Sequence record: MT682711.1
Length of the DNA stretch: 64,000 nucleotides
Source of the DNA: Escherichia phage vB_EcoM_FB
Strand: one strand, 5' to 3'
Below are positions 1 through 43,892 of this stretch, piece by piece (within the stretch, counting starts at the first letter, position 1; the number at the start of each line of letters is the position of its first letter). Under the pieces are notes generated by a model that was not told where the DNA came from, did no database searches, and worked only from the letters and a program-made list of their open reading frames with translations. Both the position numbers and the translations under genes were made by a program.

Positions 1-464
1 ACTTCTTTGTGCCATTGTCGATAAATCAATTCACCTTCCGGGATTTCACTAAAGGTAGCTTCACCGGTAGCAAAATGGGTAGGACACACATCAGCGTTAA
101 CAAGACCAAGAATGTGTTCAGACAAATAGCGAGGATTGTCATAATCGGGTTGTCCTGCAGTAATAAAATGTTGACCTGTTGGAATAGGTGGACGAGGAAC
201 ATCGTCGTGGTGATAACCTGGGATAGCCGGATACCAACCAGGCATCAACATATGCACACGCGAATCAAACACTACTTGGTCATTGTTCCAATCATCAGGC
301 AAGTTCATAATAAAAGAGCGCGTAATAGGGCCACCATTATTATAAGCAAATTCTAAACTACAGTTGAAGAACATCGGTTCGTTCTTGATTTTATCATTAG
401 AAATACCGCCGGCAAAACCACCTACTACACGAGCTTGACTATTAAAAGTTTTAGGACCGTTCAT
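1..464 (-). CDS. hypothetical early protein, partial (N-terminal part only; 3' end lies beyond window start)
   Basis: ATG at 462-464 (minus) preceded by GAGGA RBS; frame stays open to position 1 (first 120 nt checked codon by codon); not in ORF track because no stop in window. Confidence 0.5.
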   Translation of the reverse strand, partial: MNGPKTFNSQARVVGGFAGGISNDKIKNEPMFFNCSLEFAYNNGGPITRSFIMNLPDDWNNDQVVFDSRVHMLMPGWYPAIPGYHHDDVPRPPIPTGQHFITAGQPDYDNPRYLSEHILGLVNADVCPTHFATGEATFSEIPEGELIYRQWHKE

Positions 465-477
465 AATATTTTCCTCA

Positions 478-690
478 TTACTTTTTATTGAAAAAGTACA
501 TTTTACCTTTAGGAGATAAAGATACACGAAGCGCGTTACCGATACCAACTGAACACTTAACCAAGTCAGCAGATTTCAATTCACCAAATGCTTGACGAAG
601 GTCTGCATCACGGGTATTAACCATCAGACATTTAGCACCAGCTGCACGAACTTCGTTTAACATGTTGATTGCTTGATTAGAAAGTTTCAT
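478..690 (-). CDS. small hypothetical protein (about 70 aa)
   Basis: ORF-track frame 478..768 trimmed to the ATG with GGAG RBS lying downstream of the early promoter at 727-755. Confidence 0.5.
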   Translation of the reverse strand: MKLSNQAINMLNEVRAAGAKCLMVNTRDADLRQAFGELKSADLVKCSVGIGNALRVSLSPKGKMYFFNKK

Positions 691-726
691 TTTATTCTCC
701 ATTTCACTCTGTTGTTTTGATAGGTC

Positions 727-755
727 TATAGTATCACACCTATAGACCTTGTACA
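727..755 (-). promoter_or_regulatory. T4-type early promoter inside an inverted repeat
   Basis: minus strand reads GTGTAC-17bp-TACTAT; inverted repeat GGTCTATAG/CTATAGACC spans it; conserved leader GACCTATCAAAACA follows. Confidence 0.55.
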
Positions 756-768
756 CTGTTTTATGCAA

Positions 769-1728
769 TTATTTTTCGAAAGGACGAATTAAATGATGAT
801 TGTCTTGGAATCGCTTGATGTAATCATTTTCACCCAGAGATTTATACATATTCACTACGGCTTGATAGTTTTCCCACGCGTATTCGCGGAACCATCCGGA
901 AGTGATAGAGGTGCACACTTTCTCAAGAGCCATATAAAAACTTAACGACGGTGAAATATTGAAGTCGTTAGGAACCTGTGAACGTTCTAGGGCCAGGACA
1001 CAAGTTTCTTCGTATACGCCAGCCAGTTTAATAGCTTCAGGCAAAGCTTCAAACTTCTCACGAGAGGTCATGACTTCAGACCCATCTTTCATATAAAAGG
1101 TATATGCAGGGCGTCCAGCCAATGCCACAGCTTCATGGATAGAGTCGTGGTCCAGAGTATAAATTGTGTCATTAAAGAATGAAGATTTGTTAACGTCCAG
1201 TTTAGGATGAGAATAGCTCAACGTTTCTTTCTGACGTTGCAGCATGATTTCCTGGAGCTCTTCGTTCAGGGTTACACCTTTATTACGAAGGTATTTGATG
1301 TGGGACATAGTTTTCAAGAAGAACGGATTATTCTTCAGGAAACGATGAGAGGTTTTAATAGCCAGACAGATATCAGGAGTAGCCCAATAGAAACCTGTCA
1401 TACGATCTTTCTTAATATGATTTTCAGCATATTTCAGAAGACGATAACTTGAGGTGAAGTCTTCGTCTTGAAGCTCACCAGTGATTTCTCGTACGTTAGT
1501 CAAAGCGCGAACGATATAAGCTTCAAAATAGGTTTCTTTACCGTTGTGCATACATTTGAAAGCCTGGACATCAGGGTTGTCTACGTGTACATGGGCACCA
1601 AACATCTGTGCTTTAAAATTATTCCATGACCCCTGGTCGGCAATGAAATCCCAATCAGAATTTTCGATATACTTACTTTCAATAAGACCTGCGTTATGTA
1701 ATGCACGAGAACCGATAACTAGCATCAT
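769..1728 (-). CDS. hypothetical protein (319 aa), possible Pol-beta-superfamily nucleotidyltransferase
   Basis: ORF track; N-terminus VIGSRALHNAGLIESKYIENSDWDFIA fits a G-S...D-x-D nucleotidyltransferase signature by eye only. Confidence 0.6.
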   Translation of the reverse strand: MMLVIGSRALHNAGLIESKYIENSDWDFIADQGSWNNFKAQMFGAHVHVDNPDVQAFKCMHNGKETYFEAYIVRALTNVREITGELQDEDFTSSYRLLKYAENHIKKDRMTGFYWATPDICLAIKTSHRFLKNNPFFLKTMSHIKYLRNKGVTLNEELQEIMLQRQKETLSYSHPKLDVNKSSFFNDTIYTLDHDSIHEAVALAGRPAYTFYMKDGSEVMTSREKFEALPEAIKLAGVYEETCVLALERSQVPNDFNISPSLSFYMALEKVCTSITSGWFREYAWENYQAVVNMYKSLGENDYIKRFQDNHHLIRPFEK

Positions 1729-1749
1729 ATTATTTTCCTCAGAATTAAA

Positions 1750-1986
1750 TTAAATGTCCCAGCGGGCGCTATCATATTCATCCCATAGAGCTTCATGGGA
1801 GTTACAAACGATAGGAGCAATGACTCCGTTAATATCTTCGTTGTAAGGGCAGATAGTACAAAATGCATCTTCGAAACGAACACCGTAATCAGACTTCTTA
1901 TACGCAATGTCAAAAATCTTTTTAAACTTTTCACGAGTAATGGTTTTAGCAACAACTTCAGTACCAATACTTTCGTAATAAATCAT
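1750..1986 (-). CDS. hypothetical small protein (78 aa)
   Basis: ORF track; GAGGAG RBS upstream; preferred over overlapping low-complexity frame 1725..1967. Confidence 0.5.
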   Translation of the reverse strand: MIYYESIGTEVVAKTITREKFKKIFDIAYKKSDYGVRFEDAFCTICPYNEDINGVIAPIVCNSHEALWDEYDSARWDI

Positions 1987-1996
1987 GGTTATCTCC

Positions 1997-2197
1997 TCAG
2001 ATAGGACCGTAAAGGTATGTCCAACGTTTAACGAAAGAAACTACTTCTTCCAAGGTATCGAAGACCTCTGTAGTGCCTGGAACGCCATCGCCACTGATGG
2101 TTACTTTAATGCCATCTGAAACTTCCTGGAGGTTAATCTCCAGTTGGTTGGCTTTGGCTTCGTTCAGAACTTTGATTAATTCGTTTGCGATAGACAT
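1997..2197 (-). CDS. hypothetical small acidic protein (66 aa)
   Basis: ORF track; AGGAG RBS upstream. Confidence 0.55.
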   Translation of the reverse strand: MSIANELIKVLNEAKANQLEINLQEVSDGIKVTISGDGVPGTTEVFDTLEEVVSFVKRWTYLYGPI

Positions 2198-2261
2198 TTT
2201 TATTCTCCTGTTCTGATAACGTGATTGTCATCAGTTGATAAGAGAATAGTACCACAGTTTT

Positions 2262-2591
2262 CTAGAGTTGTACATCACTTCTGCAATATTCTAAAAATAA
2301 TTTATTGTTGTCAACTGTATCCCAACGTCGCCAAGATGGATTCCAGACCAAAGCGTTGTCACCACAATCATTGAGCTTAAAATGGTCATAGTACATAGCT
2401 ATATGTCTAGTCTCGTCACCAGAGAACCCTAGTATAGGCTCGCCGTGGGTGTGATACATATGATGGTGCATTGAGAGGTCGCATTTATAAAACATTTCAC
2501 GTTTACCGCGAATGAACAAGAATGCTTGTCCGTTCATATAAAATTCTTTATCTGTTTTTAAAAGATATTTGAATACTGAATCTTTGTGCAT
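2262..2591 (-). CDS. hypothetical His-rich protein (109 aa)
   Basis: ORF track; GGAGG RBS; HHHMYHTHGE cluster. Confidence 0.55.
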   Translation of the reverse strand: MHKDSVFKYLLKTDKEFYMNGQAFLFIRGKREMFYKCDLSMHHHMYHTHGEPILGFSGDETRHIAMYYDHFKLNDCGDNALVWNPSWRRWDTVDNNKLFLEYCRSDVQL

Positions 2592-2628
2592 AAGTCCTCC
2601 TTCACATCCGTGTGATTATTATATCCTA

Positions 2629-2853
2629 TTAACAGCTACTTGGATACCAGATTTTACCATCAGCTTGAGCAACGAAGGTACGACCAGCTTCTTCACCATA
2701 ACAAGAGCTATTCAGCCAATCTTCGAGACGAACTTCGCCGTCATAATCATCTAGCTCAACACCAAAATCCTGAGCAGAAGCCATATCTTTTACTTTCTTA
2801 TACAGTGCAGCCAGTTCAAGAGCAGCTTTTTCTAATTCATTAATATCAGACAT
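2629..2853 (-). CDS. small acidic protein, paralog 1 of a 4-member tandem family (74 aa)
   Basis: ORF-track frame 2629..3003 trimmed to the ATG at 2853 (Met51, AGGAAA RBS) because the upstream part overlaps the next paralog; C-terminus ...GKIWYPSSC. Confidence 0.6.
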   Translation of the reverse strand: MSDINELEKAALELAALYKKVKDMASAQDFGVELDDYDGEVRLEDWLNSSCYGEEAGRTFVAQADGKIWYPSSC

Positions 2854-2863
2854 TTTTATTTCC

Positions 2864-3076
2864 TTAGCAAGACATAGAAGAAGTAAACCAGAAACCATCG
2901 CCATCTGGGATACCGTAATCATCACGGACCCATTCGTAATCATCATATTCCGGATTCTTTGGAGAAATGTATTGTCCACGACCGGAAACATGGAACTCTT
3001 CACCTGTTTCGTCAGCCACGGACTGGCCTTTACGTACTAATTCGTGGATTTGTTTTTCAATTTCATCAATAGTCAT
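2864..3076 (-). CDS. small acidic protein, paralog 2 (70 aa)
   Basis: ORF track; RBS AAGGTAA; C-terminus GFWFTSSMSC. Confidence 0.65.
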   Translation of the reverse strand: MTIDEIEKQIHELVRKGQSVADETGEEFHVSGRGQYISPKNPEYDDYEWVRDDYGIPDGDGFWFTSSMSC

Positions 3077-3085
3077 TTTATTACC

Positions 3086-3367
3086 TTAACATTCAGAAGA
3101 AGAGGACACCCATCCACCTTTTTCAAGGTCTGTGGTGTAGTCGTGGGTGTTAACGATAGCGTATTGAGGCTCACCGTATTCTTCCCAGTGGGCAAGGTCA
3201 GCTTTCAAGGCGCCAGGAGAATAATAGTCACCGCCCATACCGCGAGCAGGGTATATATTAAAATGAGTCTCATATTTGTTTGCAATTTCCTCGGCGTGGC
3301 GAATAGCCTTATGGATGTCATTTACTGCGTTGGCCAGTTCTTTATTTTTACTGTAATCATTCATCAT
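3086..3367 (-). CDS. small acidic protein, paralog 3 (93 aa)
   Basis: ORF track; RBS AAGGAAA; C-terminus GGWVSSSSEC. Confidence 0.65.
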   Translation of the reverse strand: MMNDYSKNKELANAVNDIHKAIRHAEEIANKYETHFNIYPARGMGGDYYSPGALKADLAHWEEYGEPQYAIVNTHDYTTDLEKGGWVSSSSEC

Positions 3368-3376
3368 AACGTTTCC

Positions 3377-3667
3377 TTAGCACAATGCCGAAGAGGAGAC
3401 CCAAGCACCAACTGTAACGACGCCGTTTTCAACTTCACCGCCGTTGTTTTCAATTTCATCTTTAAACCACTGGGAGCATTCATAGCCGATAGGGTAATAT
3501 GTACGACCTGAACCATAATCGCCCGTACCGAATTGAATACCATACTTATCAGCAATTACTTCACATTCATGTTCGATGGTATCCACTTTATTCAGAAGAG
3601 CATAGATAGCTTTTTCTGCAGATTTCTCGTCGTTGTGTTCTGGGATTTCAATTTCAATTTTATTCAT
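3377..3667 (-). CDS. small acidic protein, paralog 4 (96 aa)
   Basis: ORF track; RBS AGGAAT; C-terminus GAWVSSSALC. Confidence 0.65.
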   Translation of the reverse strand: MNKIEIEIPEHNDEKSAEKAIYALLNKVDTIEHECEVIADKYGIQFGTGDYGSGRTYYPIGYECSQWFKDEIENNGGEVENGVVTVGAWVSSSALC

Positions 3668-4017
3668 GATTTACATTCCTTAATAAAGGTTTCAAGGTCA
3701 TTACATTTGGTTTGTTTTACATACTCATTATACTTAGCCATAGCTAAAGCATAACTCTTTTTACGTGGCTTGTTTAATTTATTAGTTTGGACAACATCAA
3801 AGACTAATGGGATAAAGTATCCTACTAAAGATGGAACCCAAATCCACGCAAGACTCATATCTTCAAACGGATGACGAGGCATACCATTAATAATCCCGCC
3901 AACAAGGAATCCTATTATTCCTGCAATCATACTAGTAGCAATGCCGAGGAATAAGGAAATAGAGATATCGTAATCTTCTAATGCATAACCTGGATCGGTT
4001 TTACTAGGCTTATACAT
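3664..4017 (-). CDS. hypothetical membrane protein (two hydrophobic segments)
   Basis: ORF-track frame 3664..4035 trimmed to second ATG (4017), which has an AAGAGG RBS; hydrophobic stretches IATSMIAGIIGFLVGGII and IWVPSLVGYFIPLVF. Confidence 0.55.
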   Translation of the reverse strand: MYKPSKTDPGYALEDYDISISLFLGIATSMIAGIIGFLVGGIINGMPRHPFEDMSLAWIWVPSLVGYFIPLVFDVVQTNKLNKPRKKSYALAMAKYNEYVKQTKCNDLETFIKECKS

Positions 4018-4546
4018 TTTGAACCTCTTTAGCATATTCGCGGCATTCTTTAATAAAACGATTAAGCTTGCGTTGCTGTTTACGACTTTCTAACGTGTAT
4101 TCGTCGGCCAAAACAATAAGCTCGTCTTTATCGTAATTTTTAATATCAGAGTAAGATGGACGACGGTCGACCATACCAAAATGGTCACCATTTTCTAACA
4201 TCAAATAACATACTAAATGATAATCATCATCTGCATTAGTAAGCTGCTTATAATCACTCGGTTCGTTTAAAGCATATACCGAATATCTTACTCCGGCGAA
4301 TTCCACTCGTTGAATAGCCAGATTTACGTCAATAATTTCTAAAGCTTCTGCAAAAGAAAGGTCTTCAGCTAAAGCAAAGATAAAGGGTAATTTAGTAGTA
4401 TAGCCACGGTTATTTGTTCTGCTTAAGAAATCGTTAGAATAACCTAGGTCCTGGCGAATTCTATAAAGAACCGCATTAGTTTCATGGGAAAGACCACTAT
4501 GCTTAAACCAATCAACATTTGATATCAGGTCATCATATAAACCCAT
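4010..4546 (-). CDS. hypothetical protein (178 aa)
   Basis: ORF-track frame 4010..4651 trimmed to ATG at 4546 (GAGAGGAG RBS); the longer N-terminus would run through the hairpin at 4569-4586. Confidence 0.55.
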   Translation of the reverse strand: MGLYDDLISNVDWFKHSGLSHETNAVLYRIRQDLGYSNDFLSRTNNRGYTTKLPFIFALAEDLSFAEALEIIDVNLAIQRVEFAGVRYSVYALNEPSDYKQLTNADDDYHLVCYLMLENGDHFGMVDRRPSYSDIKNYDKDELIVLADEYTLESRKQQRKLNRFIKECREYAKEVQNV

Positions 4547-4595
4547 AATATTCTCCTCTCCTCCAAATGGGGAGACCGAAGTCTCCCGGGTAACA

Positions 4596-5189
4596 TTACT
4601 TAAGTGAATTGATGTAGTCGTCGATATCAGCAGAAGTCGTATCCATTCCAACTTGTGGGCCTTTAAACGTTTCTACACGCATCAAGGTATCTTCAATATC
4701 AATCTTAGTCAGTGCAGCGATTTCAACAACATCATCGGCAGTAGCAATACCAAGGGCAGCCATATTACGAGTTTCACGGATATACTCGAGCTTAACGGCT
4801 AGTTCCTGACGAGAGTCATCAAGTTCCTTGACCTTAAGCTTAATTTCATTACGCATTTCAACATAATCATCAGCTTTCTTACGAAGTTGAGTAGCCGTAC
4901 GACGATAAAGGAGGCCCAGTTTAGCATGCACCTGAACATCGGCGCCTTCTTTAATCAGCTTACGAATTTCACGTTCTTTAGAACTAGCCAGTTGGTCCTT
5001 TTCATTAGCGAGTTCACGAATACGTTTTTCTTCATTCACAGACTTAACATGGGCAGTCTGGAGCTCAGTGATTTTATCAATCAGAGTAGAAGCAGCTTTA
5101 GTATACTGGTCTTCGATTGACAGGTTCTGAGCCATTGCGGTACCCAGTTTAGAACGGATGAATTCAACGATTTTCTTTAAAGTGTTCAT
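4596..5189 (-). CDS. hypothetical coiled-coil protein (197 aa)
   Basis: ORF track; charged heptad-like helices; downstream of the early promoter at 5232-5261. Confidence 0.6.
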
Positions 5190-5231
5190 AGTATTTCCTT
5201 CAGTTGGTTAAGATTTATAATCCATGAGGAC

Positions 5232-5261
5232 ATTATACCCTGTCCTCTGAGGTTTGTAAAC
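5232..5261 (-). promoter_or_regulatory. T4-type early promoter with -10 in a hairpin loop
   Basis: minus strand GTTTAC-18bp-TATAAT; inverted repeat GAGGACA/TGTCCTC flanks the -10. Confidence 0.5.
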
Positions 5262-5264
5262 ATT

Positions 5265-5663
5265 TTATTTCATTTTTGCGAGGCAAATTTCATTGGCTTC
5301 CCATTGAGCTTGCTTAATAATAGCTTTGGATACAGGAGCCCTTTGGCCATAAGTTTTTGACGTTGAGAGAACAATACATTTGTTTGCCTCATTATGCCAG
5401 CCCCGTGATTTTTCGCCATGAGTACCTTTAACTACAGCTGACACCTCAACAGAGCAACCACCATCAGAAATCTTGGTTTCGACAATCCATTCATTTCTTT
5501 CGACAGCTTCAAGTTCTAATCTAGTTTTTTCTTCATACATGGCGGCCCAATCAGTTTTTGCCAGGTTGAAAGTGAGAGCTTTCTCCAATTCTTTGGCAGC
5601 TTTTTGTTGTTCAGGCGTTAATGAATTGTACAACTCTTGCATTTCTTTATCTTCGATATTCAT
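5265..5663 (-). CDS. hypothetical protein (132 aa)
   Basis: ORF track; GAGGAG RBS. Confidence 0.6.
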   Translation of the reverse strand: MNIEDKEMQELYNSLTPEQQKAAKELEKALTFNLAKTDWAAMYEEKTRLELEAVERNEWIVETKISDGGCSVEVSAVVKGTHGEKSRGWHNEANKCIVLSTSKTYGQRAPVSKAIIKQAQWEANEICLAKMK

Positions 5664-5688
5664 TATGTTCTCCTCAAATTATGGGCTC

Positions 5689-5718
5689 ATAATATCTTAA
5701 TCATGAGCCCATGTAAAC
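5689..5718 (-). promoter_or_regulatory. T4-type early promoter inside a 10-bp inverted repeat
   Basis: minus strand GTTTAC-18bp-TATTAT; inverted repeat ATGGGCTCAT/ATGAGCCCAT. Confidence 0.5.
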
Positions 5719-5720
5719 AA

Positions 5721-5984
5721 TTATTTCATATTATTGAAATAATCTTCCGCATCAAAATCGTTATCATGATAAACTTTGGTAGACGATTTAGCATAACCTT
5801 CAGCTGAGAACATATTAACCACAACCTTAATTGTATACCATTGTCCGTCTTCATTACCCATTACAGCATACGTTTCATATACCGGATGTTCAGGACCGAT
5901 AACCTTAATATCGTTAACAGTAGCACCAAATTCTTCAGGAACGCATTTCATAAAGAAATTAAACAATTCACCGTAATTATCCAT
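5721..5984 (-). CDS. hypothetical protein (87 aa)
   Basis: ORF-track frame 5721..5999 trimmed to ATG at 5984 with GGAGAG RBS in the conserved leader. Confidence 0.55.
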   Translation of the reverse strand: MDNYGELFNFFMKCVPEEFGATVNDIKVIGPEHPVYETYAVMGNEDGQWYTIKVVVNMFSAEGYAKSSTKVYHDNDFDAEDYFNNMK

Positions 5985-6019
5985 TTTACTCTCCTTCACT
6001 CTGTTGTTTTGATAGGTCT

Positions 6020-6048
6020 ATAGTATCATGTTTAAAGGAGGTGTAAAC
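6020..6048 (-). promoter_or_regulatory. T4-type early promoter with conserved leader
   Basis: minus strand GTTTAC-17bp-TACTAT followed by AGACCTATCAAAACAACAGAGTGAA. Confidence 0.55.
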
Positions 6049-6070
6049 ATCTTTTTAAACTTTTTAGAAA

Positions 6071-6099
6071 CAAAAAAGGCCCAACCTTTCGGAAGGGCC
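6071..6099 (-). terminator. rho-independent terminator (minus-strand sense)
   Basis: hairpin GGCCC..GGGCC followed on the minus strand by TTTTTTG; exact copy at 51253-51281. Confidence 0.55.
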
Positions 6100-6156
6100 T
6101 TTAACCTAGGGTAACCTTGTCGGGGTTTCACCTGCTAGGCAAGTGTTTGTACGATA

Positions 6157-6240
6157 CGCCGGGATTCGAACCCGGTTATTAAGTAGTTGACGCTACTTAA
6201 TATTTTAAAAGGCCATATCTCGACCATATCCGAACGTTCC
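6157..6240 (-). ncRNA. tRNA-like or small stable RNA candidate
   Basis: canonical T-arm CCGGG-TTCGAAT-CCCGG on minus strand preceded by a 6-bp hairpin; no matching acceptor or anticodon arm found. Confidence 0.3.
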
Positions 6241-6409
6241 GTCAAAAACGCTACTCGGCTTACGGCAAAGATATTTCCTCGAATCGATAATTCTGTGCGC
6301 CGTTTAAGCTGTGATATAAGGGGTCATTAACAAAACATAAAGATTTATTAATGTCGGTCCTTAAACAGGGAACTTCAGTCCGACGACTTACCGGTAGCGA
6401 CCCGGTTTC

Positions 6410-6760
6410 TTAATATTCTTTTAAAGAATCAATATATTCACGGCGTTTACGCCACAAATCAATTGCTTCATACGCGGATTCAGCATTTCGAATTAGCCGG
6501 CATTTATGTAAAGACTTATGATTTTGATATTGTGTAGATAACGGAATTGTATCTAAAAGGTCTTTACGATCAAAATATTCGTAACCATCTAAACCAAATG
6601 AACGATTTTTGAGAAATTGCCAATGACCATATTCGTTTTCGACATAAACATAATCTGCATGCTGATAAAGCAAATTAATTACACGTTCAGAAATAACAGT
6701 ATCATTATGATTAAAATAGAATGTTAAATCATGAACTACTAAATAAACATTACCTTTCAT
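6410..6760 (-). CDS. hypothetical protein (116 aa) inside the tRNA cluster
   Basis: ORF track; GAGGA RBS 16 nt downstream of the tRNA-Arg 3' end. Confidence 0.5.
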   Translation of the reverse strand: MKGNVYLVVHDLTFYFNHNDTVISERVINLLYQHADYVYVENEYGHWQFLKNRSFGLDGYEYFDRKDLLDTIPLSTQYQNHKSLHKCRLIRNAESAYEAIDLWRKRREYIDSLKEY

Positions 6761-6778
6761 ATTTTCCTCACTTATAAT

Positions 6779-6854
6779 TGGTCGAGGCAGTAGGGATCGA
6801 ACCTACGACCTAGGACTTAGAAGGTCCTTGCTCTTCCTTCTGAGCTATGCCCCG
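6779..6854 (-). tRNA. tRNA-Arg (anticodon TCT)
   Basis: hand-folded cloverleaf: acceptor CGGGGCA/TGCCTCG, D-stem GCTC/GAGC, anticodon stem AGGAC/GTCCT with loop CTTCTAA, T-arm GTAGG-TTCGATC-CCTAC, encoded CCA. Confidence 0.85.
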
Positions 6855-6857
6855 TAA

Positions 6858-7526
6858 TTAAAATTTCATTTTTCGACCTTTAAACCATCCTTCTGGAATT
6901 GGGTCAGTTTTCTTAATACGTTTAGAAACTTTTTCATCTAATGAATGAATCCACATCATACCAAATTGGGAATTCTTTTCGCCCTGTTGATGTTTATTTC
7001 TGGCGTGAGATTCTTTCATTTTATTAATAGTTTCAGGAGTATGATGCTTATTTAAAAATCTGCTATTATTTAAAAATTTTTCCCTGTATTCAGGAGTTGA
7101 CCACAAGCGTTTAAATACATTTGAACCATGTTTACGATATTTTTCTTGAAGTAAAATATCACTTTTAAAACGTGACTTAAACGATTTAGCTCCTTTTAAA
7201 CTAGCGTCTTTCTTCTGGTTTAGCATCCCAGGAATATTTATATGGTCCCAACCACCTTCACCACCTAATTTCAAATTATAAACATCAGGGCGCTTTAAAA
7301 ACTCTTCAGTCACAATATTCTTTTCTGACTCAAACATAGAGGTTTTATCGTCAAAGAACTCTCTAATATTTCTTTAGAAAAATTTTCTATACCATACTTA
7401 TCTTGGGCTCTTTTTAATAATTTACCAGAACCCATATATCCATCATCTAAATTTTCGGTAGAATGAGCGCCTATATAGATTTTTATTATTAATTTTATTT
7501 GTTATTTTATAAATGTAATGGAACAT
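6858..7526 (-). pseudogene. GIY-YIG homing endonuclease disrupted by two frameshifts
   Basis: three frames together rebuild a protein collinear with the intact paralog at 12737-13249 ([15 protein letters not shown] / [26 protein letters not shown]... / ...NLKLGGEGG...); AGGAG RBS before the first ATG. Confidence 0.6.
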
Positions 7527-7567
7527 AAATATCTCCTATTTCTAAGAGTATTTATGTTCCCAAAATA

Positions 7568-7638
7568 TGGCCCTGGGTGGAATCGAACCACCATCCAGCG
7601 ATTATGAGTCGCTCGCTTGACCGTCCAGCTACAGGGCC
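7568..7638 (-). tRNA. tRNA with CAT anticodon (Ile2-type as in T4, or Met)
   Basis: acceptor GGCCCTG/CAGGGCC perfect, anticodon stem AGCGA/TCGCT with loop CTCATAA, T-arm GGTGG-TTCGATT-CCACC; CCA not encoded. Confidence 0.8.
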
Positions 7639-7733
7639 TTAATTCTATTATGAAAGGCTCTTTGAGGGAAGAACCTTTGGTAATAGAGGGTACTTATTAA
7701 TAATAACACACAACTCTTAAAGCATATTACTTG

Positions 7734-8114
7734 TTAACCTTCATCAACAATAGTGTGGGTATTGGCATTAACAATTTGCCACCAGTCGAAACGATTAGAA
7801 CCGTATTGAGGCTTATTCTCGTTTTCTTTAATGATATCACGCAGTTCATCTTCAGTCGCGGCCTTTGCGATTAAGTCGGCATAACCGCCACGGGGATAAT
7901 AGTTATCACCAGCAAAGAGTAAAAAGTTTGTTTTAATATTCTTGAATTCTTCAAGAGTAATAACTGTTCCAGATGGTTGGACAATATCTACGTAACTATA
8001 TCCTAATTTCTGGGCTTCATTTACTGCTTCAAGCAGGGTGTCATGGGCCCATCCAATTTGACAATCCGGTTTTTCAGATGGGTTGGCTTGATAATCTGCG
8101 TACACTTTATACAT
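7734..8114 (-). CDS. hypothetical protein (126 aa)
   Basis: ORF-track frame 7734..8162 trimmed to ATG at 8114 with AGGTGA RBS. Confidence 0.55.
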   Translation of the reverse strand: MYKVYADYQANPSEKPDCQIGWAHDTLLEAVNEAQKLGYSYVDIVQPSGTVITLEEFKNIKTNFLLFAGDNYYPRGGYADLIAKAATEDELRDIIKENENKPQYGSNRFDWWQIVNANTHTIVDEG

Positions 8115-8115
8115 T

Positions 8116-8301
8116 TTACTCACCTTTAGAGATTTTATCCATAACGAAAGAGATTGAACCAATTAAAAATGCCACTACTAAAGAGATTGTATTCTCAGAA
8201 GTTGTAAGCAAATCCAACATGAATCCTGCAAACATACTAAAACTAAAAGTGGTAATAGCAATAAGGGCAGTAGCATTTCTAATTAATTCACAACGTTTCA
8301 T
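8116..8301 (-). CDS. small membrane protein (61 aa)
   Basis: ORF-track frame trimmed to the ATG after the GGAG RBS in the conserved leader; two hydrophobic segments. Confidence 0.5.
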   Translation of the reverse strand: MKRCELIRNATALIAITTFSFSMFAGFMLDLLTTSENTISLVVAFLIGSISFVMDKISKGE

Positions 8302-8337
8302 TTTATTCTCCAATCACTCATTTGTTTTGATAGGGCT

Positions 8338-8367
8338 ATAGTATCATCACTAAAGCCCGTTGTAAAC
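8338..8367 (-). promoter_or_regulatory. T4-type early promoter with conserved leader
   Basis: minus strand GTTTAC-18bp-TACTAT then AGCCCTATCAAAACA; partial inverted repeat GGGCT/AGCCC. Confidence 0.5.
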
Positions 8368-8369
8368 AA

Positions 8370-8630
8370 TTATTTTAGATAAATTGCATATTTTTTATAG
8401 CCAGCTGTCTCGTGGCGCAACCCTTTGTCATTAGCAAAGCGTTCAATATTATTAATTTGGTTTTGGTCGAGTTCTGAAATATCAAATACAAAAAAGTTTC
8501 TCTTATTGCCTAAAGTTACGTGATTAGTCAAATCGATGTTATAGAGATGATTTATATTATCAATCACGGTCTTAACAGATTTGTTAATTTTTACTTCCTC
8601 ATTAAGAATAAATTCTTGATAAGTTTTCAT
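8370..8630 (-). CDS. internal protein (ipI-locus) with capsid-targeting N-terminus
   Basis: N-terminus MKTYQEFILNE resembles the T4 internal-protein targeting peptide with an L-x-E protease site (recalled from T4); lies next to 57B as ipI does in T4. Confidence 0.6.
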   Translation of the reverse strand: MKTYQEFILNEEVKINKSVKTVIDNINHLYNIDLTNHVTLGNKRNFFVFDISELDQNQINNIERFANDKGLRHETAGYKKYAIYLK

Positions 8631-8667
8631 TTTGGGTTCCGTTTGGTTAGTTTGTTTTGATAGGTCT

Positions 8668-8696
8668 ATAGTATCATATTTATAGACCTTGTAAAC
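8668..8696 (-). promoter_or_regulatory. T4-type early promoter inside an inverted repeat
   Basis: minus strand GTTTAC-17bp-TACTAT; inverted repeat GGTCTATA/TATAGACC; leader GACCTATCAAAACA. Confidence 0.55.
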
Positions 8697-8703
8697 AACT
8701 TTT

Positions 8704-9381
<678 letters not shown>

Positions 9382-9389
<8 letters not shown>

Positions 9390-10143
9390 TTTTATTTCCT
9401 AATAATTTATCAATAGTAGTGTATAGTTCAGAAAGGGTTCCGTTATTTTCAACAACAACGTCACCAGGTAAAATTGGTAGACCCGCTTCAGTAATGTGCG
9501 AGTCTTGTACTTGACCGGTATCAGCGCGAACTACATGAATAATCGTAGCACCCATCGCCCTGAGCGAATCAATTTCATGTGTTTGACGAACATCAGGTAC
9601 GACATAGTATTTCGCATCAGAGTATATTTTATCAAAATAGTCTAAAGCGAATAACTTAACCCAATACATTTTATCAAATCGGTTAACAATAATATCAGTC
9701 CCAAGGGTCTGCATGAGACGACGTACTGACCAATTGTTATTTTTATTTATTACTTCAAACAGTTGGTCTTTTGTTTCTTCAGACAGATACTGGACTGGGG
9801 TAAGACCATAATGATATGCGGTACGAACATCCATTCCTGGAATAGGAAGGATATTATTCAGTTTGACAATAGCATTTTCAAAGATATCAATCACATCATA
9901 TGGTTTTAAAGGAATGATTTCTTCACGGTCGTAACCGATACCTTCAAAACAGTTAAAATCTAGTTTAGGCATGTAACTACGGTCGAATACAGGGTCATCA
10001 GAGATGTATTCATAGGCTTCAGCCAGATACTTTTTAATAGGACCTGCGAGCTGAAATTTTACCGAATCCATATTTTCGATTACATAGTTAGCAACGGTAT
10101 CCTTACCGCTACGTTTGATTCCTACAATTGATATTAGTTTCAT
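9382..10143 (-). CDS. 1: deoxynucleoside monophosphate kinase gp1
   Basis: P-loop GIKRSGKDT; conserved blocks WSVRRLMQ.LGTD, MYWVKLFALDY, AMGAT.IHVVR match T4 gp1 as recalled. Confidence 0.9.
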
Positions 10144-10733
10144 TATTTTCTCATAGATGGATGCATAGACATACGAGCCACTCGTTGTTCGGCATACGAA
10201 TCAATTTGTGGACGACCTGTAACTATTGTACCATCTATTTCTACAGCAAACGATTTGAAGTTGAATGTTGCTGTGGCGATTATCGCCGGGTCAGAATCCT
10301 CTTTATAAGAGTACTGGATTTCCGAGAGGTCGGATGGCCAACCACCGTAGTAATGAATGCTCATTACGATTTTCTGTTTGTTGTTATCAAGGATGTGGAG
10401 GGTGATAGCTTCCGGTTGACCTTTAGGATGCCAGGCTTCTGAATCATGGGTTACATAGTTGTTTAATGACAACATCCACTTATAAACGTCAAGCCACGAT
10501 TTCAATTCACGGTCCACAAGAAAGTTCACAATCAATGGGTCGAATTCTACAGTAGAACCTGGCAGCTTAGCACGATGTATACCCTGGGTCGATCCTGGGA
10601 CGTCTGAGACCGGAATATGGATACCAGGTAGTGTTACATCTTGCACGTTTAATTTGAATGCCTGCGTCATTCCTGCGTCACTAACCTCTAAGATAAAGTT
10701 AGTAGTGTTAGTTTGGTTAAATAAACCGTTCAT
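10143..10733 (-). CDS. 3: tail completion / sheath stabiliser gp3
   Basis: synteny 1-3-2-4; start uncertain (Met22 would give 175 aa, near T4's 176). Confidence 0.75.
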   Translation of the reverse strand: MNGLFNQTNTTNFILEVSDAGMTQAFKLNVQDVTLPGIHIPVSDVPGSTQGIHRAKLPGSTVEFDPLIVNFLVDRELKSWLDVYKWMLSLNNYVTHDSEAWHPKGQPEAITLHILDNNKQKIVMSIHYYGGWPSDLSEIQYSYKEDSDPAIIATATFNFKSFAVEIDGTIVTGRPQIDSYAEQRVARMSMHPSMRK

Positions 10734-10815
10734 AGGGTTCCTATATTGCTTAAGTCCTAGCCAGTGTATAATGGTCCTAGGTCTGTTCCATTCAATAACT
10801 GGCTGGGATAATAGA

Positions 10816-11652
10816 TTAAGAATTCTTCCATACTTTCTGAGCTGAGTAACGCTTACCTTTAGACATGAACTGTTGGAGAGGCATCATTACGACATTAGCC
10901 CAATCAGATGGTTTTATCTCTACTAAAGGTCCCTTAATATTTCCAGGGATATAAGCCTTAATCATCACGTCGGCGCCAGCGAATCCTTTTACCTTACTCC
11001 AATCGATTTTTAATTTAGTCGAGTTCGTAATGGTAGGCGTACTCGCGTATTGCTTCAGCAATTCTTCCAGAAATTGTTGTCGTGCTTTAGGTGGGATATA
11101 GTGTAAGTTCAGCCCGTACATTAAATTATGCTTACCTAGCCCAAGATAAATGATTAATGGATATTTGTCCCAGTACGGTAGGGTATCCTTATGTTTGGCA
11201 TCATAGATATACGCATAAAGCTTACCAGGAGATGGTTTAGATACCTGGTGCCCACGAATTCCTTTCTTTAATGTTTCTGTAAACCATTTAGCCGATTTAT
11301 TGTTTACAGCGGCGCCCTCGTTAGCAATCTTATCACGAATACTCTTTCTAAAACTATTCACCAAAATTAATTGACGTTCTGCTTTGGTTAATTTATTGCC
11401 AGGTTTCTTCTGAAGTTTTTCAACCTGTACAGCAGTTTTAATTCGACTCGAGTATCGAGACATCGCAGATGTAAAGCTAGAATACTTGATGCCTTTATCT
11501 TCAGCGAATTTCTTAGCCGAAACACCTTTAGCCTTAGCGTTGGCATATTCAACGCCTAAAGTTATCCATTGTTGTTCTGAACGAGTAGGCTTGGAACCTT
11601 TTGTAGTTTCAGTAGCCTCGTTGATGTAAGAAAATATACTCATCCTTTCCAT
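10816..11652 (-). CDS. 2: DNA end protector gp2
   Basis: 278 aa, synteny with T4 gp2. Confidence 0.8.
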
Positions 11653-12089
11653 CCTAATTTTTTCAGTGAGTTTTCGGTAATCAATCTGAAATTAATTCCC
11701 ATTTTATCTGCTGTAGCTTTAGCAGCTTTCCATTTATCTTTATTTACACTCCATGTATAATGTTCGTTGATATATCTCTTTTTAGCAGCTGTAGTCATTT
11801 TAGCAGGCGCCGCTGGAGGATGGGTCTCTTTAAAAGGTTTGACTTCGAAAAAGAATTGTTGACCATTGTCGAACTTCACCCAGAAGTCCATAAAATACCG
11901 ACGTTTCTTTCCATCAGCGTTACTAAAATATGGAATCACAACCTCTTCCGAGTTCCACTGGACGACATTAGGATGGTTGTCAAGCCAACGCATAAGCCAT
12001 GCTTCCCAAGAGGAACGATATTGGATTTTCTTCCAATCACCTTTATATTTTTGTAAGTTTGTAGGTTTAAATTTCCCTGAGTAGGCCAT
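11640..12089 (-). CDS. 4: head completion protein gp4
   Basis: 149 aa, synteny with T4 gp4. Confidence 0.8.
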
Positions 12090-12134
12090 AGTGCCTCCTT
12101 ATAAATATTAATATTATTTATACTCGGAGGCACT

Positions 12135-12737
12135 ATGCTCTTCTCATTTTTCGATCCTATAAATTACGAATCAAAAACAGTCAAGCCAGATTCCGGCTCA
12201 TTAACTGATGCCGATGTACTGAGCGTACCGATGACTGATATATTTAGAAACTATAAAGAATATTTTGATAAAGTGGCTAAAAATTATACACTTAAAACAT
12301 ATTATATCAGTGGGGCCCCTCGTCCAGAAGAATTAGCCCATCAACTTTATGGTAACGTGCAATTATATTGGATCCTTTTAATGTGTAACAATATCTATGA
12401 CCCTTATTACGGCTGGATTACAGGCCAAGAATCTGCGTATCAAGCAGCTATTCAACGTTATGCTACTGCAGGCGGAAACCAAGTCCTTTATCATGTCAAT
12501 GAAAAGGGTGAGAAATTCTGGAATCTAGTAAATACTCCGGAAAATCCTTATACTTGGTACGATAAAGGTGATACAGAAAAACGTTATCCTCAATATGAAG
12601 GTCCTTTGGCTGCAGTAGATATTTACGAGGACGCCATTCGTAAAAATGAATATAAGCGCGAAATAAAGATTATAGACCCTAATGACATCGAGTCCTTTGT
12701 TTCCGCTTTAATTAGAGAAATGGAGAAGTCACTCTAA
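12135..12737 (+). CDS. 53: baseplate wedge protein gp53
   Basis: 200 aa; first gene of the plus-strand baseplate block, before gp5. Confidence 0.8.
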   Translation: MLFSFFDPINYESKTVKPDSGSLTDADVLSVPMTDIFRNYKEYFDKVAKNYTLKTYYISGAPRPEELAHQLYGNVQLYWILLMCNNIYDPYYGWITGQESAYQAAIQRYATAGGNQVLYHVNEKGEKFWNLVNTPENPYTWYDKGDTEKRYPQYEGPLAAVDIYEDAIRKNEYKREIKIIDPNDIESFVSALIREMEKSL

Positions 12738-43552: not shown

Positions 43553-43819
43553 TTATGCAATCTTAACTCGGCGGTTGATGATATCACGGAAGTCAATACG
43601 ATTTTCTTGGATTTTCAGCCAGTTACCAGATTTGTCTTTGGTATGGGTAGAGTATTCACCGTTCCACCAGAAGTCGGTAGCATAAGCCATGGCTTCGTAT
43701 TTCTTAACTAAGGCATTCACTGCATTACCATTAGGATTGTTACCGAATTTTTCTACCAGAGCTTTGATGTCTTTATCAAGAGCGGAAAGAGTAGTACGAA
43801 TAAAGTTTAACTTGTTCAT
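43553..43819 (-). CDS. small hypothetical protein (88 aa) antisense to the late block
   Basis: ORF-track frame trimmed to ATG after GAGGAG in the conserved early leader; occupies the position segD holds in T4. Confidence 0.55.
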   Translation of the reverse strand: MNKLNFIRTTLSALDKDIKALVEKFGNNPNGNAVNALVKKYEAMAYATDFWWNGEYSTHTKDKSGNWLKIQENRIDFRDIINRRVKIA

Positions 43820-43848
43820 TTTTAATCTCCTCATGTTTTGATAGGTCT

Positions 43849-43878
43849 ATAGTAACATGTGAGAATCTTGCTGTAAAC
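43849..43878 (-). promoter_or_regulatory. T4-type early promoter with conserved leader
   Basis: minus strand GTTTAC-18bp-TACTAT then AGACCTATCAAAACA. Confidence 0.5.
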
Positions 43879-43884
43879 AACTTT

Positions 43885-43892
43885 TATAAATA
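43885..43892 (+). promoter_or_regulatory. late promoter TATAAATA upstream of gene 24
   Basis: exact consensus 28 nt before the ATG. Confidence 0.6.

Follow-up and report, generated by a model that had tools for sequence, protein, structure and literature searches.

Promoter-early stem-loops (PeSLs) have been described in the phages RB49/phi1 (Arbiol et al. 2010, PMC2839356) as well as in T4/PST and KVP40/nt-1 (Comeau et al. 2014, PMC4122927), and consist of an AT-rich tract with an upstream stop, a strong early promoter, a stem-loop belonging to one of five positional subclasses, a Shine-Dalgarno sequence (SD), and an ATG. Most of these stem-loops lie between the -35 and -10 elements or over the -10, with G-T pairs noted among them, and the elements sit in plastic regions where they mark indels, with mini-circles found in RB49/phi1 (PMC2839356, PMC4122927). 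The same two papers describe the work of Repoila et al. 1994, which concerned early-promoter repeats flanking the internal-protein genes of T-even phages. The T4 early promoters carry GTTTAC at -36 to -31, TGn, a -10 box, an A-rich tract at -40 to -44, and "additional regions of consensus", and relatives favour C at -3 to -1 (PMC1524935, PMC2988021). A further type of control is found at the T4 genes e, soc, 49, and I-TevI, which have an internal promoter and hairpins that sequester the ribosome-binding site (RBS) (PMC3014915). Here we analyze 64,000 nucleotides of Escherichia phage vB_EcoM_FB (MT682711.1), referred to below as the window, in which five near-identical minus-strand copies of a short promoter cassette precede small accessory genes. 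Judging from its sequence, each copy very probably works in this T4-like Dhakavirus as an immediate-early expression cassette that is complete in itself, and the cassettes are the Dhakavirus form of the known T4 early promoter and PeSL elements, not a new kind of element.

The cassettes share a 21-mer core, TGTTTTGATAGGKCTATAGTA. Exact pattern search located it five times on the + strand of the whole window (713-733, 6005-6025, 8323-8343 as the G variant, 8653-8673, and 43834-43854), compared with 0.01 matches expected from 100 dinucleotide shuffles, none of which reached five. A scan of the window allowing up to 6 mismatches found no diverged copies at 1-4 mismatches, the next best match having 5, and the core family is therefore discrete. 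At least five near-identical minus-strand copies had been claimed by an earlier sequence-only reading of this DNA, which is borne out, although the intervals assigned to them (e.g. 8660-8700) cover the -35 to -10 region and lie 7-10 nt too far right, thus missing the transcribed end of the core. The five cassettes are as follows.

688-770, minus strand: cassette c713; -35 at 755-750, 16-nt spacer ending in TGA, -10 at 733-728, core 733-713, predicted +1 at the A at 721, SD GGAGAATAAAA at 700-690, ATG at 690-688.
5982-6060, minus strand: cassette c6005; -35 at 6047-6042, -10 at 6025-6020, core 6025-6005, predicted +1 at 6013, SD GGAGAGTAAAA at 5994-5984, ATG at 5984-5982.
8299-8380, minus strand: cassette c8323; -35 at 8366-8361, 17-nt spacer, -10 at 8343-8338, core 8343-8323 (GCCC variant), predicted +1 at 8331, SD GGAGAATAAAA at 8311-8301, ATG at 8301-8299.
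8628-8706, minus strand: cassette c8653, the copy flagged by the earlier reading; -35 at 8695-8690, 16-nt spacer, -10 at 8673-8668, core 8673-8653, predicted +1 at 8661, weak SD GGAA at 8640-8637 with no GGAG, ATG at 8630-8628.
43817-43890, minus strand: cassette c43834; -35 at 43877-43872, 17-nt spacer ending in TGT, -10 at 43854-43849, core 43854-43834, predicted +1 at 43842, SD GAGGAGATTAA at 43832-43822, ATG at 43819-43817.

Read along the minus strand, every copy passes through an A-tract, (G)TTTACA, a spacer, TGn, TACTAT, AGACCT, and ATCAAAACA, followed by a short leader and an ATG located 23-31 nt beyond the predicted +1. The -35 hexamer, as read from the sequence, is TTTACA with a preceding G in four of the five copies, the remaining one being gTGTACA in c713, and the A-rich tracts found 5' of it read aaaataattg, aaaaagatg, aaaaagttg, ataaaagttg, and ataaaacag. 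The -10 is TACTAT in all five, each with TG two bases before it (TGA or TGT), and AGACCT reads AGCCCT in c8323. The spacer measures 16-17 nt when counted from TTTACA, which is equivalent to the 17-18 bp previously given between a GTTTAC-like -35 and TACTAT. Hence, the GTTTAC-type -35, the TGn and TAnnnT -10 at 16-18 bp, and the A-rich UP-like tract of T4-type early promoters are all present, and the match to the T4 early consensus given in the earlier reading agrees with the published one (PMC1524935, PMC2988021). The predicted first transcribed base is the A in ATCAAAACA, which follows the -10 by seven nt. Of what had been described as a conserved transcribed leader, only ATCAAAACA is predicted to be transcribed, and AGACCT, which separates the -10 from the start, is the discriminator. 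The boundaries of the conserved block are sharp, with an invariant core and a spacer that is nearly unrelated among the copies, and in three copies the similarity extends through the leader to the ATG. A generic sigma-70 scan returned 50 sites compared with 40 expected and is uninformative by itself.

The core can also be placed within a wider consensus. We scanned the 113-kb early region of Bp7 together with the early regions of T4 for a -35/-10 pair followed by an SD and a start codon, which yielded 36 predicted early promoters in Bp7 and 33 in T4. After the -10, the Bp7 promoters have the consensus AGACCTATCAACTA, and CTATCAA occurs no more than 16 nt after the -10 in 14/36 of the predicted Bp7 promoters and 10/33 of those predicted in T4, the chance of such an occurrence being roughly estimated at ~0.001 per promoter. 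Because CTATCAA recurs across the promoters of both phages, the window core is, on this comparison, a sub-variant (...ATCAAAACA) of an early-promoter consensus (...CTATCAAC...) that is common to T4 and Bp7 and spans the start site. The five cassettes can accordingly be regarded as a family that is discrete in the window, but not as one standing apart from the T4/Bp7 early consensus. The predicted start site is supported by the T4 record, in which the homologous promoter bears the note 'early promoter Pe133295', placed exactly 7 nt past its -10. A parallel family exists in T4, where seven near-identical early cassettes share TGGTACTATACAACTATC..., most of them continuing ...AACTACTGATACGGATTTGGAGAATAAAATG (27079, 70695, 55383, 167085, 163672, 146874, and 53942 in the T4 genome). 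As this family is near-identical internally and yet different from that of the window, it appears that each lineage homogenises its own cassettes. A search of the available literature returned nothing relevant on the early promoters of Dhakavirus/JS98.

The leaders are 23-31 nt in length, A/C-rich, and unstructured, with minimum free energies (MFE) of 0 to -1.5 kcal/mol and z = +0.6 to +1.4 relative to shuffles, and a search of 1-12500 against Rfam at E <= 0.1 recovered only two tRNAs above threshold and two sub-threshold chance hits, none of them at the cassettes. A GGAG ribosome-binding site is present in four of the five copies, c8653 being the one without it, and all four sites fall within the unstructured leaders. 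These sites resemble the target of the RegB endoribonuclease and S1, for which the consensus is GG*AGRAYARAA (PMC3014915); c713 and c8323 match it at 11/11 positions, c6005 and c43834 at 10/11, and c8653 has no match. Given these matches and the presence of regB in Bp7, an early burst followed by RegB cleavage would be expected for four of the five genes.

The ORFs downstream of the cassettes encode 61-88 aa, are mutually unrelated, and fall into five different PHROGs. A Pfam search of all five gave no hits.

478-690, minus strand: ORF after c713; 70 aa, MKLSNQAINML..., phrog_6001, function not known.
5721-5984, minus strand: ORF after c6005; 87 aa, MDNYGELFNFF..., phrog_2678, function not known.
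8116-8301, minus strand: ORF after c8323; 61 aa, MKRCELIRN..., T4 Trna.4-like, phrog_1692, probably a membrane protein.
8370-8630, minus strand: internal head protein gene after c8653; 86 aa, with the MKTYQEFI N-terminal signal, phrog_7673.
43553-43819, minus strand: ORF after c43834; 88 aa, MNKLNFIRTT..., phrog_6003, function not known; antisense between late genes 23 and 24.

For the first of these ORFs, relatives (VR5 gp124) annotate a longer version at 478-768 (291 nt) that begins at a TTG directly 3' of the upstream gene. Since c713 places an SD and ATG at 690, this annotated start is probably too far upstream, leaving 70 aa from the ATG at 690. The internal-protein promoter has a peculiarity of its own. 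Gene 57B ends with its stop codon at 8706-8704, 9 nt before the -35 of c8653 is reached, and the c8653 spacer contains, at 8684-8677 on the minus strand, TATAAATA, the T4 late-promoter consensus as quoted in PMC1524935. With TATAAATA inside the early-promoter spacer, the internal-protein gene could be transcribed both early and late from overlapping promoters. In the VR5 orthologue of c8653, TATAAATA is kept and the hairpin arm is lost.

When examining the distribution of the cassettes, it is evident that they are a recurrent feature of related genomes. The exact core was found in 35 IMG/VR loci, mostly T4-like genomes of ~155-175 kb, and is enriched across the whole genomes of relatives, typically at 4-6 copies per genome. 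An 85-nt cassette query matched 1780 places in 762 phage records, and among the matches listed all records are T4-like phages of enterobacteria. Across relatives, at least 12 unrelated small ORF families are found downstream of the core, and orthologues in many phages keep the core with changed spacers.

The cassettes also coincide with sites of gene replacement. At one site upstream of motA, the same cassette precedes different ORFs, MNKMKNTQ in JS98 and MKTLNINS in another Dhakavirus. In phage 005 (vB_EcoM_005), 656 bp are inserted precisely where the -35 edge of c713 lies. Homology to relatives breaks off at the upstream edge of c6005 and its terminator (6065 or 6100). JS98 loses homology at the upstream edge of c8323 (8376), and IME281 does so on both flanks of c8653 (8633 and 8701). 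In phages with two internal-protein genes, the junction lies in the shared N-terminal coding sequence at 8607-8633. Altogether, 9 of the 28 breakpoint clusters fall in cassettes, which make up 4.6% of 1-12500 (binomial test, p = 3e-6; the null is uniform, which is generous because breakpoints favour gene boundaries anyway). The proposal that the cassettes serve as portable expression/recombination modules finds support in the genes replaced at one cassette and in the breakpoints along cassette edges, and the comparison of cassette boundaries with synteny breakpoints comes out in its favour. Phage 005 additionally lacks a 436-bp segment, 5276-5712, which carries the ORF at 5265-5663 and ends in two adjacent early promoters.

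5681-5717, minus strand: further early promoter without the 21-mer core; -35 at 5717-5712, -10 TATTAT at 5694-5689; surrounded by a 13-bp hairpin, ATGGGCTCATGAT / ATTATGAGCCCAT, z = -4.30.
5226-5260, minus strand: further early promoter; -35 at 5260-5255, -10 TATAAT at 5237-5232; bracketed by GAGGACA / TGTCCTC.

Such a promoter-to-promoter indel is as expected of a PeSL-type deletion or insertion. On the late side of the window, an insertion of ~670 bp in two relatives separates the end of gene 23 from the antisense 88-aa ORF at its 3' end (43553-43563), so that the variable side of this intergenic site is the one opposite c43834.

Inverted repeats had been noted in three copies, and all three are present (c713, c8323, and c8653), although they span the spacer and the -10 instead of the whole promoter. 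Their arms, which form stems of 8-10 bp in three of the five copies, lie in the spacer and just past the -10, with RNA-fold z-scores of -3.0 to -3.4 relative to shuffles. The likeness to PeSLs, which the earlier reading had also proposed, is in agreement with the published positions of their stem-loops, mostly at -35/-10 or over the -10 (PMC2839356, PMC4122927).

722-749, minus strand: hairpin of c713; AGGTCTATAG / CTATAGACCT, 10 bp with an 8-nt loop, MFE -18.7, z = -3.04.
8333-8358, minus strand: hairpin of c8323; GGGCTtTAG / CTATAGCCC, 8 of 9 paired, z = -3.29.
8662-8689, minus strand: hairpin of c8653; AGGTCTATA / TATAGACCT, 9 bp, z = -3.41.

The c713 inverted repeat can be written (A)GGTCTATAG / CTATAGACC(T), 10 bp, and in its hairpin the -10 is divided between the loop, which has the first two bases, and the 3' arm, which has the remaining four; in the c8323 hairpin, a G-C pair compensates for the T-A found at the same position in other copies. 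Hairpins having the same architecture and unrelated arms surround the window promoters 5717 (13 bp) and 5260 and occur widely in Bp7 and T4. We paired each spacer with its own or another promoter's downstream sequence in a permutation test (5000 permutations), and the mean longest stem was 6.11 for own and 4.82 for other sequences in Bp7, compared with 6.45 and 4.67 in T4, with 0/5000 permutations reaching the observed value in either phage. Stems of at least 8 bp were formed by 8/36 Bp7 promoters (expected fraction 2.9%) and 7/33 T4 promoters (expected fraction 0.7%). Within the core family, the arms covary: a change of the core from GACC to GCCC (A to C) is accompanied by a change of the spacer arm from GGTC to GGGC (T to G), with at least 4 independent loci per type, one exception, and several G·U substitutions, and 90.6% of the core hairpin cells are paired, compared with at most 54% in slid controls. 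Furthermore, G·T exceeds A·C inside the stems (16:6 vs 52:106 in control stems; Fisher p = 6.5e-4), which points to a hairpin in the sense-strand RNA. As the left arm lies upstream of the start site, that RNA must be read-through from an upstream promoter. None of the promoter hairpins was flagged by a generic terminator scan, and the lack of a U-run in all of them sets them apart from classical intrinsic terminators.

Two classes of hairpin can be distinguished. Those of class A bracket the -10, as in c713, c8323, and c8653. In class B, a pyrimidine-rich spacer segment just past the -35 pairs with the gene's own SD, examples being Bp7 9820, 59823, and 70307 (11 bp each), T4 denV, and the window copies c6005 and c43834. 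The c6005 spacer CCTCCTTT can pair with the SD region GAAGGAG, and the c43834 spacer TCTCACATGT can pair with ACATGAGGAGA, c43834 having only this long-range pairing; c8653 shows no SD pairing. SD accessibility was assessed by partition-function folding of 49 T4 and Bp7 promoters, which gave the following unpaired probabilities of the SD.

Own transcript: mean 0.69, none <0.05 (0/49 below 0.2).
Native read-through: mean 0.33, 39% <0.05.
Random genomic upstream sequence: mean 0.48, 3% <0.05.
Shuffled own upstream sequence: mean 0.40, 7% <0.05.

Native read-through differs from random upstream sequence (Mann-Whitney p = 2.6e-4), and significance is limited to the tests against random or shuffled upstream sequence: upstream halves swapped between promoters mask equally (0.32 vs native 0.33), so masking is a property of the promoter class and not of matched pairs. 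Tentatively, these folding models suggest that T-even phages (T4, Dhakavirus) might hold a large share of their early promoters within RNA hairpins whose 5' arm lies in the spacer, ~40% of them having the gene's own RBS as 3' arm, such that efficient translation would occur only from RNA of a gene's own early promoter and not from read-through or middle-mode RNA. We consider this proposal possible, albeit doubtful. If true, such early masking would be the mirror image of the late-only control of e, soc, 49, and I-TevI, and it could explain the RegB resistance of GGAG sites in longer transcripts. No description of RBS masking at T4 early promoters was found in T4 reviews (PMC2988021, PMC3014915) or the PeSL papers (PMC2839356, PMC4122927), and a literature search on early-promoter SD sequestration in T4 returned late-gene cases only. 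The predicted widespread RBS masking in read-through RNA is possibly the one point that is new.

Taken as immediate-early expression cassettes, the five copies suggest the following sequence of events. Unmodified host sigma-70 RNA polymerase would read the A-tract, GTTTACA, TGn with TACTAT, and the discriminator/start AGACCT-ATCAA..., and transcription would begin at the A seven nt after the -10. In four of the five copies, RegB cleavage at GGAG would then end expression after the early burst. In RNA reading through from upstream, the hairpins would most likely form and attenuate or insulate the gene; for c6005 and c43834, such RNA would pair with the RBS and only RNA of the cassette's own promoter would be freely translated. 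Since 45-85 bp of near-identical sequence precedes unrelated small genes, the cassettes would presumably also serve as homology patches, at which recombination inserts, deletes, and swaps accessory genes, as proposed for PeSLs. The identity of the 21-mer is best explained by selection on the promoter/start consensus and lineage homogenisation by recombination acting jointly. Several observations weigh against parts of this account. The -35 of c713 is weaker (GTGTAC), the inverted repeat is missing from two of the five copies and has been lost in some orthologues, for instance at the internal-protein promoter of VR5 and in the c6005 counterpart of QL01, and the SD pairing of c6005 and c43834 is likewise lost in some orthologues. 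The promoter hairpins have no U-run and, with swapped upstream halves masking equally, masking of the SD is not promoter-specific. Promoters beyond the five copies are pattern predictions only. As for recombination, the uniform null of the breakpoint test is generous, and the promoter edge of c43834 has no breakpoint, the only break there being at 43562/43563 at the 3' end of the ORF.

Several other explanations of the invariant block can be considered. It is conserved well past the known sigma-70 contacts next to a freely diverging spacer, and the shut-off of T4 early promoters is not understood, being explained by neither AsiA nor ModA (PMC2988021, PMC3014915); both points would fit an operator, extending from the -10 to ~+9 (TACTATAGACCTATCAAAACA), for a phage DNA-binding protein that shuts off early promoters within minutes. 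Nevertheless, such an operator could not be universal with CTATCAA limited to 14/36 and 10/33 of the predicted Bp7 and T4 promoters, the block has no dyad symmetry of its own, and lineage-specific homogenisation accounts for its exact identity without a binding factor, all of which makes this explanation unlikely. Homogenisation might alternatively be the whole story, the copies being recent duplicates or gene-conversion products in which the repeats and the core beyond the -10 have no function. The lineage-specific, near-identical families (...AGACCTATCAAAACAACAGAGTGAAATGGAGAATAAAATG in the window and ...ACAACTATCAACTACTGATACGGATTTGGAGAATAAAATG in T4) and the likeness of three copies through the leader to the ATG would be consistent with this. 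Yet the boundaries are sharp, an almost unrelated spacer adjoining an invariant core, orthologues in many phages keep the core and change the spacer, T4 has the same consensus despite belonging to a different genus, and the hairpin arms covary, so we regard a functionless origin as very improbable.

The conservation of ATCAAAACA, and of the leader to the ATG in three copies, could also point to a structured or protein-binding RNA leader, i.e. a riboregulator or translational operator, which we judge to be about as improbable as functionless duplication. Shuffled sequences fold at least as well as the leaders (leader MFE 0 to -1.5, z = +0.6 to +1.4), Rfam at E <= 0.1 matches none of the cassettes, and conservation starts at the -10 and includes the untranscribed AGACCT, which points to a signal read at the DNA level. 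A structured leader RNA was rejected accordingly, the cassettes' own transcripts, at 0 to -1.5 kcal/mol, being like shuffles. The least credible of the alternatives is a promoter for a phage single-subunit RNA polymerase of the T7, SP6, or K11 type, to which we assign next to no probability. The only thing shared with T7/SP6-type promoters is the heptamer ACTATAG, whereas all copies have a GTTTACA-type -35 and TGn at sigma-70 spacing, the annotated regions of Bp7 and T4 that were examined contain no phage RNA polymerase gene, T4 encodes no polymerase of its own (PMC2988021), and the sequence preceding the -10, which T7-type promoters cannot do without, is the part that varies here. A T7/SP6-like promoter, which would show a conserved block from -17 to +6, is thus ruled out by the conserved sigma-70 -35/TGn and the variable upstream region.

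Regarded as early-promoter cassettes, these elements provide a sequence-level handle on the immediate-early genes of Dhakavirus phages, as they mark true start codons and early units, and they mark the likeliest sites of accessory-gene gain, loss, and swap. Several Dhakavirus phages are used or proposed for phage therapy. The hairpin-embedded early promoters of T4 and Bp7 further offer a hypothesis for how some proteins might be confined to the first minutes of infection.

The window as a whole belongs to the Bp7/JS98/VR5 group of T4-like Dhakavirus. Its overall identity to Bp7, WG01, and QL01 is 96.5-99.8%; across 24 kb the figure for Bp7 is 96.5%, and in the neighbourhood of gene 23 Bp7 and QL01 reach 99.5-99.8%. 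According to the gene layout taken from the Bp7 and VR5 annotation, 1-12 kb is a minus-strand early region holding e.x ORFs, tRNAs, Trna.2-4, the internal-protein locus, 57B, 57A, and gene 1, and 12-43 kb contains late genes, with the fifth cassette lying antisense between genes 23 and 24. Other features of the early region include the following.

6779-6854, minus strand: tRNA-Arg (TCT).
7568-7638, minus strand: tRNA-Met (CAT).
6072-6102, minus strand: hairpin resembling an intrinsic terminator; AAAGGCCC...GGGCCTTT with a T run after it, immediately upstream of c6005.

The hairpin at 6072-6102 closes the tRNA/stable-RNA cluster. Upstream of it, the minus strand of 6110-6411 is non-coding, includes a tRNA-like T-arm, GGTTCGAATCC, and a block (6291-6411) conserved in relatives, and ends at this terminator; ARAGORN and Rfam made no call on 6110-6411, which probably holds stable RNAs like T4 rnaC/rnaD. 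A separate 42-nt stretch at a gene junction (3071-3112), which is not a promoter, occurs twice in VR5 and phage 005, on either side of an additional small gene, as seen from overlapping HSPs (high-scoring segment pairs), and may reflect tandem paralogues.

Comparison with the described systems shows both shared and distinct qualities. The hairpins of e, soc, 49, and I-TevI have the same geometry as that predicted for the class B promoters, in that the 5' arm lies upstream of an internal start and a long transcript masks the SD while a short one does not. However, their late internal promoters delay translation, whereas the early promoter of the window cassettes is predicted to confine it to the early burst; the internal promoters of the window are of the early sigma-70 type, and only c8653 also has the late consensus TATAAATA. 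Similar to the RegB/S1 sites of T4 early mRNAs, four window leaders match GG*AGRAYARAA at 10-11 of 11 positions, the difference being the internal-protein copy c8653, which has GGAA and no GGAG. As far as the T-even internal-protein repeats are described in the PeSL papers, c8653 parallels them by preceding an internal-protein gene that starts MKTYQEFI, and in relatives, where the number of internal-protein genes is one or two, junctions fall within the cassette as well as in the coding sequence of the shared N-terminus (8607-8633, 8701). Unlike those repeats as described there, the window core also stands before non-internal-protein genes elsewhere. With T4 early promoters, the cassettes share GTTTAC at -36 to -31, TGn, the -10 box, an A-tract at ~-42, and the CTATCAAC start-region consensus found in T4's own promoters, and the T4 denV promoter (65412) is almost identical to that of Bp7. 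They differ from them in being the ...ATCAAAACA sub-variant with its own homogenised leader, the T4 family being ...ACAACTATCAACTACTGATACGG....

The closest parallel is with PeSLs. Like these, the window cassettes are arranged as a stop in an AT-rich tract, an early promoter, a stem-loop, an SD, and the ATG of a small accessory ORF; the stem-loop often lies between the -35 and -10 or over the -10 (over the -10 in three of the five copies) and tolerates G-T pairs; and the elements occupy plastic regions beside ORFs of no known function, with indels or replacements between close relatives occurring at the elements, the promoter side of c43834 excepted. The distinctions are also clear. The window lineage is Dhakavirus, with a GTTTACA -35 and AT-rich stems, whereas RB49 has TTGACA and polyG/polyC stems, and two of the five window copies are without a local stem-loop, c6005 having the upstream terminator-like hairpin. 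For RB49/phi1, terminator activity and mini-circles have been shown. Pairing between spacer and SD, as proposed for c6005 and c43834, falls outside the published PeSL description. Despite these differences, the cassettes extend PeSL-type modular shuffling to another T4-like lineage.

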